Below, piece by piece: positions 12,773 to 60,011 of a stretch of DNA of 64,000 nt. The stretch is taken from NCBI GenBank assembly GCA_023061495.1, contig GCA_023061495.1_3643.1; one strand, written 5' to 3'. Both the position numbers and the translations under genes were made by a program. The DNA comes from Escherichia coli. Lineage in GTDB: Bacteria > Pseudomonadota > Gammaproteobacteria > Enterobacterales > Enterobacteriaceae. The notes under the pieces were generated by a model. It made no database searches, was not told where the DNA came from, and saw nothing but the letters and a program-made list of their open reading frames with translations. Position 1 is the first letter of the stretch. Each line of letters starts with the position of its first letter.

Positions 12773-13110
12773 CAGAGATCATCATTTCAACTGCAGGGTA
12801 TGTATTCCTGACAATCATTGCGCTGATCATCTTGGTGGTGGTGTATGGATTTGTTATCCTGCCTATTCTTGAGACATTTAGTTTGTGTCGGTGTTGGAGA
12901 AAGGCTTACGGACCACAGCCGTGGAAAGACTGGCCTCATCTGTTACGCATAGCGTTCTCCTATGCCTATGATCACTCCAGCAGTGCATGCATAACTGGGT
13001 ATCACGCCCACAACTGGAACTGGGAAGGGTTGGGGAGATGGAATGTTATAAAAACTATACCTCTACGCATGTACAAAGGAAAAGGAGGGATTGATGGGAA
13101 TACCTGTTAA
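12769..13110 (+). CDS. Hypothetical membrane protein
   Basis: ATGA overlap with upstream stop; N-terminal hydrophobic segment IISTAGYVFLTIIALIILVVVYGFVILPIL. Confidence 0.5.
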   Translation: MTEIIISTAGYVFLTIIALIILVVVYGFVILPILETFSLCRCWRKAYGPQPWKDWPHLLRIAFSYAYDHSSSACITGYHAHNWNWEGLGRWNVIKTIPLRMYKGKGGIDGNTC

Positions 13111-13738
13111 AGACAGAAAAGTATGTGGTCGTGGAGTAAACGATTTAAAAGACAAAGTCCCAATGTACCAATCTGTTAATGGTAAGAGAGTACCAGAACC
13201 CCACTACGCTACATGGAAAGCATTATTCCAGAGGTGCTACGGCGATAACTCAAAGTACCATACAGGTTGTGAAGTTGTAGAAGATTGGTGGTTGTTCTCA
13301 GAATTCTGGAAATGGATGGATACACAAGAGTGGAAAAGAGACTCTAAGAAGTTCACTCTTGACAAAGATCTGAAAATCCCTGGAAACAGAATATACTCCC
13401 CAGAAACATGTATGTTTGTCCCACCACAAATAAACACCTTATTTGGCATAAGACAGGCAGCACGAGGGGATTTACCTTTGGGTGTGACACTTAGAAAAGA
13501 TGTAAACAAGTATCTCGTGCATTGTCATCGAGATGGAAAAATTGTTCATGGCGGTCATTTCGATGATCCACAGACAGCACACAAGGTGTGGCAAGAAATG
13601 AAACTTGAGGAGATGAAACTTCAGGCTATTAAAAACAAAGATGAGATTTGGCTGTTCGCCATTAAACGTGCAATAACTATCCTTGAGAATGATTTGAAAA
13701 ATAATAAGGAGACTATAACATTGGTGAAATTTATTTAA
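13094..13738 (+). CDS. AP2-domain protein with degenerate HNH-like N-terminal region (homing-endonuclease-derived)
   Basis: GVTLRKDVNKYLVHCHRDGKIVHGGHFDDPQTAHKVWQE fits AP2 DNA-binding domain; RBS AAAGGAGGG before ATG 13094. Confidence 0.55.
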   Translation: MGIPVKDRKVCGRGVNDLKDKVPMYQSVNGKRVPEPHYATWKALFQRCYGDNSKYHTGCEVVEDWWLFSEFWKWMDTQEWKRDSKKFTLDKDLKIPGNRIYSPETCMFVPPQINTLFGIRQAARGDLPLGVTLRKDVNKYLVHCHRDGKIVHGGHFDDPQTAHKVWQEMKLEEMKLQAIKNKDEIWLFAIKRAITILENDLKNNKETITLVKFI

Positions 13739-13839
13739 GATATTTATGGTAGTATTTATTTTAAAATTATAAAAATTTTAGGCGATGAGGGAAAATATGT
13801 AATGGATTTTCCCTTATTTATCAGATATTTGCAGATATT

Positions 13840-14250
13840 TGGAAATCCTTAGAAAATCAGAAAATGGATCGAAAACTAAAATGGATTTTTCAGAGTAGGC
13901 GCGACAAGCTGAATAACTCATCCTACCGTTTGCACCATATTCCAGGCCACCATTATAGATTTCCCACACATGCTCACATCCTTCTACTAGAACTTCCTCC
14001 ACTTACCCTTGACCTTTTATGGTAATAATCTAACCACTATCTTGAAGTTGCAGTGCAGCTTTCCAGGTACTCGATCTGTTTTTCGTTTCAAAGATTGAAT
14101 TTTCTGAAAATTTTTCTCGATAAATTTTTCGGTACTCGATCTGTTTTTCGTTTTCTGAATCAGATTTTCTGGGAATCGTTCCGGCGCTCGACCTGAAATT
14201 TTTGGGGACGAAATCGATTTTTCGTTTTCAGAAATGGATTTTTAAAATTT
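13840..14250. repeat. AT-rich non-coding region with iterons (23-bp perfect direct repeat at 14066-14088 and 14131-14153; several AAAATGGAT and TTTTTCGTTTTC units)
   Basis: Direct repeats visible in sequence; no convincing ORF. Confidence 0.55.
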
Positions 14251-14389
14251 CTATATGGGAATATTTTAGGAGTTATTATTTTATATAGAATTGTCACGGT
14301 AGGTAATTAGCATGCTAACTAAATTTATGAAATGCGAAAAGTTCTCATTTAGAATTTTGAGTGATAATCATTCTCGTTTGCAGAATAAC

Positions 14390-14566
14390 GGGCACCCCCG
14401 GTGATTGTCTCCCGGCCCCTACTGCCCCGGCTTGTTATTATAGTAACACACAGGACAAAGAAAGCAAGAAGTTTTTGCATAAATTTTTAGACGATAATGA
14501 TAATCGTTCTCATTTCATGCAGCGCCCATCCCCGGTGGTTGTCTCCCCCGTCACCGGTGCCTGCCG
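14390..14566 (+). repeat. Two copies of a GC-rich element (core CCGGTG(A/G)TTGTCTCCC) in an AT-rich intergenic region; third copy inverted at 22498-22540
   Basis: 14390-14431 and 14525-14566 share core and upstream GATAATC(A/G)TTCTC flank; potential stem CCGGTG/CACCGG. Confidence 0.45.
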
Positions 14567-14770
14567 TCCTTTCGATATGTATATTGTGCCACCTGGCGGG
14601 GCCGCTGTCAACACTTTTCAAAAAATTTTTCTAACCTGATGCGCTAACCGCTGCAACCTGGCGGGGCCAGCCTGGCAGGACCTAACTGACCAGGTAGGGG
14701 AGAATGAAGGCTTGCAAACCTGGTAGGCCTATGCTATAGGATAAGTAACAATTGAAGAGGAGGTACAAAA

Positions 14771-23812: not shown

Positions 23813-26410
23813 TTTTTTAACTGAATTATCAAGGGGCTTAGGCCTGTCTGCTCTTCCCCCTACCATAAACGGCCCTACCTGGCAAGTGGAATAATTGACG
23901 GGCCATCAATCCAGCACACTGTACAAATATACATATAAAAATAACTATTGCATAATCTTTCATCTTGTGGTAGCAGGGCCATTTTTACACGTTTTTCCTT
24001 CCAAAAATGCACGTAATGCAACTATTGCACAAAATTTAACCTGATACACATCTTCAGTATACTGTCAACAATTAAAAACACTTATAAGTCATACACTTAC
24101 ACCACCACAAAAGCGTGTCCTACGTGAAAAATCGGGTGTAACTATAGCCGCCAGATCTCAGAATTCACGTACGCACATCATTCTATAGCCTGCAAAGTAT
24201 TTATTCCAACCACAGAATAACGGAATAGTCAATACCTGTACAAAATAATTATTCGTACAAACTGCATAACATAAACCTGCCCAGGTGTCAACATTTTTCG
24301 TAAACAGTCCTAAATTGTCACGATAGGTTACTATAATCAGAGAAATCTTTAGTCGTCTAATGTTTACTGCACATAACTATACTGATTGGAATCATTAGAT
24401 GACTAAGAGAAAGATAAGAAATAGTTAACAATGTAATTGTTTTACCTGTAACAATAAGGCAACTATGCAAACGAATGCCATGGCGCGACGGAGTCGCGAC
24501 ATAATATAAAAGCAGTAACAATCACCCCCGTGATAGTTTGTCTGCAATCTATTAGTCAGATCATAGTTGCCTTGTATTCAGTTAATCATGACATAATAAG
24601 CAAGGCAACTATAGATCTGCTAATAGTTGCCCTGCTTTTATATTATGTCATAGAAACGCCCGAAGGGGTGACCTAGCCACCTGGCATAGCCAGCGAAAGA
24701 TTATTAGCTTGCTAGTTGTAAGCTTGTTGGCTGTTAGCTTGTCAATTGTTAACTTGCTAATTGTTAAACTCGGGAGCATAGCCCTCGTCTCAAGGGTGTT
24801 TTCATGCAAACGAATGTCATGGCTTATCATCTCTGTGTAAACAGTTTGGGCGTAAACAGTCTATGCGTAAATAGTGAGATATGGAATAGTAACAGCCGTT
24901 ATTGTGTCATATTGTGTGACATTGTGTCAAAGGTAAAAGTGTCAAAAGTGACAAAAGTGTATAAGGTGTCAGACAAGTTTTTCTCCTCTTTGTCAAGTGC
25001 TGCATGGAAAATTTACAAACTGGTATGGTAGCATTTTTGCGGCCCTGTTTACATTCAGGAGTGTATGTATAATCCTTGTGGTGTGGGCGTTTAGACGTCT
25101 AGACGGTCAGAAGTCCGCAGGTTAATAACTAATCTATTGGTTGTTAACTATATCCCCCACAAATAATAAGAAATGCAATTGTTATATGCGTAAACAGTAA
25201 CTCATGTTATCAATCCATGTATGTATCGCCAGTGGTGCGCATAATGGGTATTATGTTAAATTGCCCGTAATGATAACGATTCTCACAATGATAAGTATTC
25301 TCATTCGCCCACACAAAATAGCTTGCAAATGTTGTGCCACTGTGTGAACGGCCTCGCCTATTAATTTGCCTCACTGCCCCGATATTTGAGAATTGTTATA
25401 AGAATGAGAAGTATTCCCATTTCGTCCGCCTGGCAGCGCTCCTGTAGGTCAGGTCAAAATCGTGGCAGAACTGGACCCCCCTTCAGATATTTCTGGCTGA
25501 CTCTTCAGGTCTGTGTGGGAAAAGCCAACCTCTCCGGCGGGGCAGGGGGTCTGCAGGAAAAAAATTGCAGGTCAATTAAAAAATTTACGTGGTGTATGAA
25601 GCGCTCTTCAGGTAAGGCAGGTATTATGGGATGAAACCCTCTTCAGGCAATGATATTTGTGGGTGTGATATTTGCTGGAAAGCCAGATATGACGGGACTC
25701 CCGGCGGGGCAGGGGTAGTACAGGCAGGGAAAATGTGGAGAATGTGGTGGGTAAATTGATCAGGCAGGTAGAGTATGGAATATGTTACAGGTATGTTAAA
25801 TATGGAGGTAAGATATTTGTAAGATTTGTGTGTAAAATCAAAGACTTAAGTGGTGTTGTGGTATTTTCTATAAATAATTCAAGTTTAATAGGTAATATTT
25901 GTCTCTATCCACTTTGTGTGGTAACCAGATTCAGATGAAATTGGTTTACAAGTGTATACATAATATACAAATTAAAGATACAAGAAACCCCCCTCCCCCT
26001 TCGGCTACCATTCACCTTTTCCTCTGACTGGTACTTAAACACTTATTCAGACTCTTCAGGTTATCACCCATATACCATATGGCAGTGACTGGTGTCCTCC
26101 GGCCCCTCTTTCGTCACCCGTCCGCTTCGCCATGCTAATGCCATAGCTAACTGTTCGGTTGTTCACCCTGTTCACTCAGGTGTATCTCCATACCCCTTCA
26201 AACCGAAGAGAACAGAAAACCCGAATTACTCGGTAAAAGAAAAGAGAAGAACTTAATTTTATCAGGATAGGCAAGAATGTCAAGGAATGACTGCTCACTA
26301 AACAAGCAAACAGTCATGTGTGGGAGGTAAGTGATTGTGGTGGTAGGAAATTTAGTTGAAAGATGTGTTATAGGTGCTTCCAGCACTTTAGCCGGGCAGC
26401 TAATTGTGTG
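23813..26410. other. 2.6-kb repeat-dense non-coding region at the convergence of + and - strand transcription units
   Basis: No convincing ORF with RBS; multiple families of 10-16 bp tandem or dispersed repeats and palindromes. Confidence 0.6.
24465..24823. repeat. Nested palindrome/iteron unit flanked by 20-bp direct repeats (ATGCAAACGAATG(C/T)CATGGC at 24465-24484 and 24804-24823)
   Basis: 18-bp perfect inverted repeat GACATAATATAAAAGCAG (24498-24515 / 24632-24649); 12-bp inverted repeat ATAGTTGCCTTG/CAAGGCAACTAT (24562-24573 / 24601-24612); three 15-bp AGCTTGT..ATTGTT-type units 24721-24766. Confidence 0.55.
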
Positions 26411-59904: not shown

Positions 59905-59925
59905 TTTTTTTTTANNNNNNNNNNN

Positions 59926-60011
59926 NNNNNNNNNNNNNNNNNNNNNNNNNNNNNNNNNNNNNNNNNNNNNNNNNNNNNNNNNNNNNNNNNNNNNNNNNNN
60001 NNNNNNNNNNN
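59926..60011. other. Assembly gap (run of N)
   Basis: 86 consecutive n characters. Confidence 0.95.

Follow-up and report, generated by a model that had tools for sequence, protein, structure and literature searches.

Origins of the iteron type, such as lambda ori, SPP1 oriL and oriR, T4 oriE, and those of plasmids, contain direct repeats (iterons) of 17–22 bp that share one orientation, are in helical phase, and adjoin a melting-prone, AT-rich segment and promoters. A second kind of origin is activated by transcription: at the T7 primary origin and at oriF and oriG of T4, tandem promoters with no gene behind them point toward AT-rich DNA. Convergent promoters with palindromic operators over one of them are found in coliphage 186 (pR/pL) and P22 (ant/sar). 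Finally, the Pectobacterium phage phiTE uses a repeated non-coding RNA, pseudo-ToxI, against ToxIN (PMC3475682).

The locus that we compare with these systems lies near 14 kb in a 64-kb stretch of DNA (the window) from a Vequintavirus, an rV5-like E. coli myovirus with a genome of ~137 kb. A 2.2-kb query around the repeats matched 117 phage records at 80–99% identity (top matches: YP-6, SYGMH1, and 241Ecol014PP). In rV5, the replisome is T7-like (a primase-helicase and a family A polymerase), a search for the origin by skew located none and found only transcription-linked skew changes, and the genome map includes a box labeled “non-coding” (PMC3606486). Our literature searches on the origin, the transcriptome, and Fur sites in rV5-like phages returned nothing relevant, and the locus appears to be undescribed in the literature that we searched.

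The repeats lie in a gap of ~1 kb without genes (13739–14770) within a long block of genes on the + strand. To the left of the gap are genes for a helicase, a methyltransferase, a primase-helicase, and a DNA polymerase, along with a series of small ORFs. To the right are dozens of small early ORFs, several of which have annotated sigma70-type promoters in rV5 and Gotham. The annotation of the gap itself is inconsistent: YP-6 has none, and other records have differing short ORFs on either strand. The preliminary description, which covered 13840–14250, called this stretch gene-free and AT-rich. It does lie inside the gap and is moderately AT-rich: its GC content is 37.5% (33.7% for the repeat array), compared to 42.8% for the window. 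The architecture of the locus extends beyond 13840–14250 on both sides.

The array consists of three units at 14066–14255, all on the + strand, with spacings of 65 and 74 nt. The perfect 23-bp direct repeat of the preliminary description is present as two exact copies of GGTACTCGATCTGTTTTTCGTTT (14066–14088 and 14131–14153); GGTACTCGATCTGTTTTTCGTTT has no further match with up to 3 mismatches in the 64-kb window, and it had none in 100 shuffles. These 23-mers are the heads of units 1 and 2, and the similarity extends to 51 nt (76% identical). What had been noticed as a related unit near 14209 is a third, diverged unit (61% identical) at 14205–14255. Besides the 23-mer, unit 1 (14066–14130) contains GATTGAATTTTCT and TCGATAAATTTTTCG, and unit 2 (14131–14204) contains AATCAGATTTTCT and GCTCGACCTGAAATTTTTGG; unit 3 carries the diverged sequence GGGACGAAATCGATTTTTCGTTTTCAGAAATGGATTTTT. 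The full unit is a composite of 65–76 nt with two or three boxes: GGTnCTCGATC..TTTTC, TCG/TGG-ATTTTTYCT, and an A-run/T-run. A profile that we built from 21 units of seven genomes recovered these three units and no others in the window (E = 9e-8, 4e-7, and 3e-6, the last being unit 3), with the next-best hit at E = 1.7. Each genome has three copies, with none elsewhere in the 64-kb window (of a ~137-kb genome) or in the loci that we fetched from other genera. Sub-repeats of the form TCGATCnnTTTTTCG at 14071, 14117, and 14136, which are 46 and 19 bp apart, are the sole matches in the window at up to 1 mismatch; an inverted copy with 2 mismatches is at 13858. The AAATGGATTTT-type units that had also been pointed out are at 13800, 13879, 14211, and 14232, and a related AAATGGATCG is at 13862. 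With up to 1 mismatch allowed, AAATGGATTTT has six matches in the window. Four of these are inside this 450-bp stretch, and the count across the window is not by itself above chance. As at iteron-type origins, these are direct repeats in the same orientation and are unique in the window, but they are composites of 65–76 bp rather than iterons of 17–22 bp.

We tentatively propose that a phage-encoded protein binds the array, which would be a cis-acting DNA platform and most likely one of the origin type. We infer the protein binding, the identity of the binder, and the role in replication from the evidence below.

The array is non-coding and has no signal of RNA structure. We rejected a coding gene because the spacings between units (65, 74, 76, 67, 52, etc.) are mostly not multiples of 3 and the frames differ. 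The longest ORF over the array in this window is 47 amino acids, and the ORFs are broken. The folding energy of the array is equal to that of shuffled sequences (z = 0.01 for the + strand and 0.33 for the − strand), and a search of Rfam gave no match for the array at the gathering score or at E ≤ 10; on these grounds, we rejected a structured RNA or an RNA of a known family. The corresponding Rfam search for five other genera gave a single, chance-level match at E ≤ 1. Our scan found no promoter-like site on either strand within 14066–14255, and we rejected an array of sigma70 promoters because there is no -35/-10 pair at 16–18 bp inside the units. In unit 3, a hairpin is followed by a T-run (a terminator-like site at 14198–14235), and the hairpin is present in both the minimum-energy and centroid folds. 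Unit 3 was the only unit to score in the terminator scan of this array, and the arrays of loci L012, L014, L015, and L016 had no hits, so we rejected a cluster of intrinsic terminators. A CRISPR mini-array was rejected as well: the parts between the repeats are conserved and are common to the units and to the genera, which is not CRISPR-like.

We then compared the locus across phages. Among 10 vequintaviruses, the three units are 93–97% identical in the alignment (92.6% for unit 1, 94.3% for unit 2, and 97.1% for unit 3), versus 72% for the adjoining 174-bp spacer (13893–14066; 72.5% mean pairwise identity for 13896–14065). Substitutions in this fast-evolving spacer are spread evenly over the codon positions (for example, 17/20/19), with no codon periodicity, and no frame is open in all of the genomes. 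Judged by this pattern, the spacer is unconstrained non-coding DNA and a yardstick of neutral drift. By that yardstick, the comparisons show strong purifying selection on the repeats, in six genera. The region to the right of the array at 14331–14680 is nearly invariant among eleven vequintaviruses, and within it and just to its left, 14328–14415 has DNA-level matches in distant genera.

The preliminary description had named absence of the repeats from related phages among the findings that would count against it. Instead, every vequintavirus that we examined has the array, and so do five other genera of the subfamily. We fetched the loci of LNA4 and SSE121/PVP-SE1 (Seunavirus), POP15 and CR3 (Certrevirus), Seu621 (Mydovirus), and Hena1 (Henunavirus), and in each we found a gene-free gap of roughly 0.8–1.3 kb in the matching place. 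In all four of these genera, the gap contains three direct repeats whose order and orientation are kept, and the array is upstream of the same cluster of palindromes and promoters. The spacing of the units is mostly ~76 and 67 nt (76 and 52 nt in POP15). The unit consensus is gGttCTCGATCGa.TTTTC..(8-12)..AtcGtATTtTtyCT..(about 10)..AAAAAATTTTT; the blocks are conserved, and the linkers that join them differ in both sequence and length. When we searched with the array of Seunavirus, 72 further records matched, including Avunavirus and phages of Proteus and Erwinia, and a pattern scan of IMG/VR gave three additional loci, all of known types. In Phapecoctavirus, which belongs to the sister subfamily Stephanstirmvirinae, the gap, the palindromes, and some other motifs are kept, and two unrelated 62-nt repeats replace the three units. 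The recurrence of the array in the same place and order in six genera points to a selected DNA control site and not to chance repetition.

Could the array instead be functionless repeated DNA that arose by slippage or duplication? The perfect 23-mer common to units 1 and 2 is what a recent duplication or gene conversion would leave. However, a three-unit array has been kept across genera whose spacers cannot be aligned, and it is at least 20 percentage points better conserved than the adjacent non-coding DNA. The conservation data contradict this explanation, and we consider it almost certainly wrong.

The conserved blocks, the fixed copy number and orientation, and the lineage-specific drift of the boxes lead us to infer that the array is a platform for a DNA-binding protein that the phage encodes. 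Units within one genome are more similar to each other (identity of 0.68) than are units in the same position across genera (0.59); in close genera, the positional orthology is clear (unit 2 versus unit 2 gives 0.80–0.86). In Hena1, the first box has been rewritten (to GGRGACTTGAG) and the neighboring palindromes are unchanged. This pattern better fits a phage-encoded binder that co-evolves with its sites than a host factor.

This change bears on another explanation, in which the array, with the terminator upstream of it, controls transcription by binding either a regulator made by the phage or a nucleoid protein of the host, such as H-NS. The region would set the activity of the adjacent promoters and operators, and it would keep the operon of replication genes to its left separate from the small early genes, with their many promoters, to its right. 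The gap does lie between two gene blocks with the same orientation, and its left edge is marked by a terminator-like hairpin. At 75–300 bp from the array are operator-like palindromes and, on both strands, conserved promoters of the sigma70 type, and the near-invariance of 14331–14680 among vequintaviruses would also fit. The sequence TCGATAAATT at 14117–14126 is what we take to be the high-affinity motif of H-NS (Lang et al. 2007), and the A6T5 blocks of the array match AWWWWWTTTTT, presumably the consensus of the distal UP element. On the other hand, there is no promoter-like site inside the array, and the array is downstream, not upstream, of the nearest leftward promoter. Also, three 70-bp composite units and two further motif families over 500 bp far exceed what the known operators of single promoters need, and a site for a host factor is not expected to change as box 1 of Hena1 does. 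We regard a role in transcriptional control or as a boundary as the chief alternative to an origin, possible but somewhat doubtful.

The left side of the locus begins with a terminator-like hairpin and T-rich tail on the + strand (13785–13825). The arms of the hairpin (13785–13796 and 13806–13817) form a 12-nt inverted repeat with 92% complementarity, and the hairpin (13785–13817) closes the upstream + strand operon. A AATGGATTTT motif at 13801–13810 spans its loop and 3' arm. Two tandem CAGATATTTG boxes, which belong to the GATATTTG repeat family, follow on the + strand at 13822–13841. Pairs or triplets of GATATTTG are also found at the left edge of the gap in Seunavirus, Certrevirus, and Mydovirus, and six of the nine exact copies of this motif in the window are in two large gene-free regions. 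AAATGG boxes accompany the GATATTTG boxes to the left of the array, and in other genera they form arrays with a 12-nt period. Next is a conserved left module at 13843–13895 with an inverted GATTTTCTAAGGAT box, AAAATGGATCGAAAAC, and AAAATGGATTTTTC; its mean pairwise identity among the 10 vequintaviruses is 94.6% (95% for 13832–13892). The left module resembles the second half of a repeat unit and has weak profile matches to unit positions 19–46.

Directly to the left of the locus, in this phage and in two close relatives, is a gene for an HNH-AP2 homing endonuclease (13091–13738; phrog_953). An HNH-AP2 endonuclease of the same PHROG family is also to the left of the locus in SSE121 and Hena1. 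Relatives that lack the HNH gene have a differing self-complementary stem at the position of the hairpin (AAGGAGGA...TCCTCCTT and then TTGATATTT). Given where the endonuclease gene is located in this phage, SSE121, and Hena1, the conserved left edge is probably a homing target. We also considered that the array itself might be the target of the endonuclease, or that it might be a packaging or recombination site of the pac type. Repeated boxes around a variable center are reminiscent of the pac sites of P1 and SPP1. However, the endonuclease gene is present in just three of the 117 vequintavirus records, while the array is in all of the records examined, which argues against this role for the array. 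As to packaging, the terminase genes are far from the locus, and the start points of the records of relatives are scattered. Furthermore, circular permutation has been reported for two Certrevirus genomes, those of CB7 and phiTE, which show neither a preferred end nor a peak in coverage (PMC7344957). A pac site is unlikely, and for packaging, recombination, and homing together we think that the array is very unlikely to be the site.

On the right, the array adjoins an AT-rich segment of low duplex stability (14238–14332) that separates it from a cluster of promoters and operators. In a nearest-neighbor scan, 14238–14287 and 14233–14332 ranked second in instability among all 50-bp and 100-bp segments, respectively, of the 64 kb (z = 4.0 and 3.8). 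Outside of Vequintavirus, the corresponding linker is shorter and is not clearly AT-rich. Within this segment, at 14285–14318 on the − strand, is a candidate weak promoter (TTAGCA-17-GACAAT) that would lead into the array. This site was read from the sequence and is below the threshold of our scan. We assigned it by position, because there are better sites in Seunavirus and Mydovirus (TTGACA-18-GAAAAT at 1487->1458 in locus L015 and TTGACT-17-GATACT at 1482->1454 in L014). Further right, two tandem rightward promoters are predicted on the + strand at 14327–14386 (ATGAAA-17-TAGAAT and TTGAGT-18-CAGAAT). About 50 nt away, facing them, is a leftward promoter at 14440–14467 on the − strand (TTGCTT-16-TACTAT), which was also read from the sequence. 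Its homologs were detected by the scan in loci L012, L014, L015, and L016, and the hexamers are conserved while the GC-rich spacer varies. Another predicted leftward promoter at 14583–14611 on the − strand (TTGACA-17-CACAAT, with TG upstream; 10 of 12 matches) is invariant in 11 vequintaviruses. Overall, the conserved leftward promoters on the right side number two to three, and in the source phage none of them has an ORF behind it. The GC-rich region to the right of the array gave weak folding signals (z = -1.3 and -1.0) and little covariation. We did not find any E. coli homolog of 14300–14770, and we rejected a host-derived origin of this sequence on that basis.

Because the leftward promoters are conserved in every sampled genus and have no gene behind them in this phage, one might suppose that they produce a non-coding RNA, unstructured and A-rich, that consists mainly of the array and acts in trans. 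It could soak up an RNA-binding protein as a sponge or divert a ribonuclease as a decoy, and the repeats would be the places where the RNA is bound or cleaved. In Seunavirus and Mydovirus, a good predicted leftward promoter points straight into the array, and the relative phiTE offers a precedent in its pseudo-ToxI. In Vequintavirus and Henunavirus, though, a promoter that leads into the array is either weak or missing. In Certrevirus, no promoter leads directly into the array, and leftward transcription from the promoters would meet a terminator-like site before it reached the array. The lack of a folding signal on either strand and of an Rfam match at E ≤ 10 (above) also argues against this explanation. 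Pseudo-ToxI is like the array in being a repeated non-coding sequence in a phage of the same subfamily, but it is at a different locus (the tRNA region, between tRNA-Tyr and phiTE_203), has a 36-nt period and a variable copy number, is a structured RNA, and is unrelated in sequence (PMC3475682). We rejected pseudo-ToxI (type III antitoxin-like) repeats for the differences in locus, period, and sequence, and we view a trans-acting leftward RNA as unlikely. A purine-rich, R-loop-prone leftward RNA was also rejected, as the pyrimidine bias of the + strand reached z = 1.1–1.8 at most.

The promoters beside the array are overlaid by palindromes that look like Fur boxes, as judged by sequence match. 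Two 19-bp palindromes (14331–14349 and 14360–14378) are in the spacers of the tandem rightward promoters, and the best site (GATAATGATAATCGTTCTC, 14493–14511) overlaps a TTGCAT-18-GATAAT promoter at 14475–14504. The best site matches the 19-bp Fur-box consensus, GATAATGATAATCATTATC, at 17 of 19 positions. It is the only site in the window with up to 3 mismatches, it is matched on both strands, and 1 of 100 shuffles reached as many matches. For the 7-1-7 form (TGATAATnATTATCA), 12 of the 14 specified positions are matched at 14362 and at 14498. As with the Fur boxes of Enterobacterales, the sites overlap promoter elements: they are in the spacer or the -10 element of + strand promoters. All of the sampled genera share the arrangement of TTGAAT, palindrome, and CAGAAT (TTGAAT-18-CAGAAT); the number of palindromes ranges from one to five, and their spacing is often ~29 nt. 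However, the consensus of the phage palindromes is TGAGAAT-C-ATTCTCA and not TGATAAT-n-ATTATCA, which makes a phage repressor an equal candidate to Fur. Tandem 19–21 bp palindromes at 29-nt spacing beside AT-rich DNA also resemble the dyad sites of the lambda O protein. The convergent promoters, ~50 nt apart here, with palindromic operators over one of them are like those of the 186 and P22 switches, but those switches belong to temperate phages, control protein-coding genes, and have no 200-bp repeat array beside them.

Returning to the proposed platform, we suggest the following mechanism. The three repeats would form a double-stranded-DNA binding platform whose short boxes are bound by a phage-encoded protein, and this protein would organize the DNA at an origin-type assembly site. 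The array would be one module of a ~1-kb non-coding locus that is found across the subfamily, with the GATATTTG and AAATGG boxes, the melting-prone AT-rich segment, the Fur-box-like operators, and the face-to-face sigma70 promoters as other modules. Transcription from the leftward promoters may help to open the AT-rich DNA for the T7-like primase-helicase and family A polymerase. We consider an origin to be the single most likely role given the repeat families, the melting-prone segment, the promoters without genes, the unique location, and the T7-like replisome. The array is unique in the window and adjoins its second least stable duplex, with leftward promoters to the right, and in this phage it is like iteron-type origins in its melting-prone neighbor and its promoters. 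In addition, a second gene-free region at 24.3–26.4 kb has motif families in common with the 14-kb locus (palindromes and GATATTTG boxes), which is reminiscent of the two origins of SPP1. The tandem gene-less promoters toward AT-rich DNA, together with the T7-like replisome, partly recall the T7 primary origin and T4 oriF and oriG; in this window, the promoter that would lead directly into the array is a weak candidate. The differences from these are that the promoters here are of the host sigma70 type, that there is a repeat array and operator palindromes as well, and that a terminator-like site intervenes in Certrevirus.

Several observations argue against an origin. A spacing of 65–76 bp between units is unlike that of classical iterons of 17–22 bp, and neither the AT-rich segment nor the promoter into the array is universal among the genera. 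None of nine loci contains an IHF site (WATCAANNNNTTR), and no DnaA box (TTATNCACA, up to 1 mismatch) is conserved in position among them. There is no recognizable initiator gene beside the array: on the left are the HNH-AP2 gene or families of unknown function, and on the right are families of unknown function. In lacking a recognizable initiator gene nearby and conserved sites for DnaA and IHF, the array differs from iteron-type origins. The preliminary description had proposed GC skew as a check. Within the 64-kb window, there is no extremum of GC skew at 14 kb, and the mean skew falls from 0.14 (1–13 kb) to 0.06 (14–24 kb). This check gave no sign of an origin, and the fall across the locus counts against one, as a bidirectional origin would be expected to show a rise. 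The case for an origin is circumstantial. The preliminary reading of the cluster as an origin or protein-binding control region stands as far as an iteron-like cluster in non-coding DNA is concerned, and the choice between an origin and a regulatory region is not settled by sequence. The locus is closest to phage origins of the iteron type or the transcription-activated type. We could not file the array under any of the known families with which we compared it, and we rated it as a cis-acting repeat array.

A bolder idea is that the ~1-kb locus is a center that organizes both replication and early transcription in rV5-like phages and their phi92-like sister group, with a phage-specific repeat array that is gated by the face-to-face promoters, and that the operators of these promoters are genuine Fur sites of the host. 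We think that this is improbable. If it were true, an obligately lytic phage would make the firing of its origin, or its early gene expression, depend on how much iron the cell has. In another version, the sites, which multiply with the genome, would titrate Fur and thereby de-repress iron uptake by the host, to the benefit of the phage’s iron-dependent ribonucleotide reductases. More broadly, the Vequintavirinae are widely used in therapy and biocontrol, and the locus gives a precise origin candidate, with coordinates and motifs, for the entire subfamily. If the locus is an origin, then it would be of a composite type that has not been described before, with 70-bp units and without sites for a host initiator, and it could be a tool for phage engineering. 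If it is regulatory, then it would be a conserved switch that may read a metal sensor of the host.

Three other comparisons were made. The theta origin of ICP1 was considered as an analog and rejected, because near 60 kb in ICP1 there is no gene-free stretch with repeats like these. The polymerase of ICP1 is related to that of rV5. Periodicity of AA/TT near 11 bp was significant solely in two Seunavirus-type loci, and we rejected intrinsic curvature from phased A-tracts because it is inconsistent between genera. Clustering of GATC sites (Dam/SeqA) does not define the array, which contains two sites in this phage and none in Hena1; GATC is strongly enriched in the arrays of Seunavirus, Certrevirus, and Mydovirus.

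Positions 14331-14680, in the gene-free gap at 14 kb, are nearly invariant among 11 vequintaviruses. From the sequence, we predict face-to-face pairs of promoters, on both strands, at 14327-14611. The rightward promoters (+ strand) are of the type TTGAAT-18-CAGAAT, and leftward promoters on the minus strand face them from about 50 nt away (TTGCTT-16-TACTAT at 14467->14440 and TTGACA-17-CACAAT at 14611->14583). No ORF lies behind either leftward promoter in the window.

Palindromes that resemble Fur boxes coincide with the -10 element or the spacer of the + strand promoters. They are found at 14331-14349, 14360-14378, and 14493-14511, and also at 25271-25305 and 25403-25421. The best of them, GATAATGATAATCGTTCTC, agrees with the E. 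coli Fur consensus at 17/19 positions, as a match of sequence only. The form AATGAGAATCATTCTCATT is kept in six genera and in Phapecoctavirus, which belongs to a sister subfamily. If these are truly conserved Fur sites, this would be unusual for obligately lytic phages. The stretch also contains an A-run/T-run (TTTTCAAAAAATTTTTCT, 14615-14632), which falls within an ORF that is annotated in rV5 and in other records. Because the length of this run differs among relatives by non-multiples of three, the annotated ORF is probably spurious.

Further left, the spacer before the repeat array (13893-14066) has just 72% identity among phages, versus 93-97% in its flanks, and it comes in a few mosaic haplotypes that carry small indels. 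Its counterpart in other genera contains two to three copies of TTATCTCAAA. Within the array, TCGATAAATT (14117-14126), which is identical to the high-affinity H-NS binding motif, does not vary in vequintaviruses and is the counterpart of a TCGAAAAAATTTTT block in other genera.

Some elements of the homologous gaps are missing here. An element of about 130 nt, containing ACCGGCGATCCACCTTCCGACC and then GTTAGCCCCGCCTTTTCGCCGTGGGGTGGCG, is highly conserved across Seuna-, Certre-, Mydo-, Henuna-, and Phapecoctavirus (L011 1650-1790, L012 1660-1790, L014 1650-1790, L015 1630-1780, and L021 1740-1840, in each gap locus's own coordinates). On the + strand its end resembles a terminator, and beyond the element there is a conserved predicted leftward promoter. 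It is not present in the window, and it has no match in Rfam. Seunavirus and Mydovirus also have, within the gap, a conserved ORF on the minus strand (L011 1815-2020, L014 1820-2011, and L015 1800-1985). This ORF encodes about 63 amino acids and has its own strong predicted promoter; nothing corresponds to it in this vequintavirus.

The gap is bordered on its left by the gene of an HNH-AP2 homing endonuclease (phrog_953, 13091-13738), which just 3 of the 117 vequintavirus records carry. Salmonella phage SSE121 and Erwinia phage Hena1 have a phrog_953 member at this same position, next to the left edge of the non-coding locus. For this endonuclease, the GATATTTG boxes are a possible homing site.

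These boxes and the palindromes are common to the 14 kb locus and a second large gene-free region (24300-26400), at which GC skew flips and the gene blocks of the + and - strands converge. This region has repeat families of its own (GTAAACAGT, TTGTGTCA, CTCTTCAGG, and CCGGCGGGGCAGGGG) and no tRNA or Rfam match, and it may be the box labelled "non-coding" on the published rV5 map. Elsewhere, the bases at 59915-60011 are all N, either masked or unresolved. The + strand has a mean GC skew of about 0.14 over 1-13 kb and of about 0.06 over 14-24 kb; the drop falls at the 14 kb locus, and gene orientation is unchanged across it (positions 1-24000).
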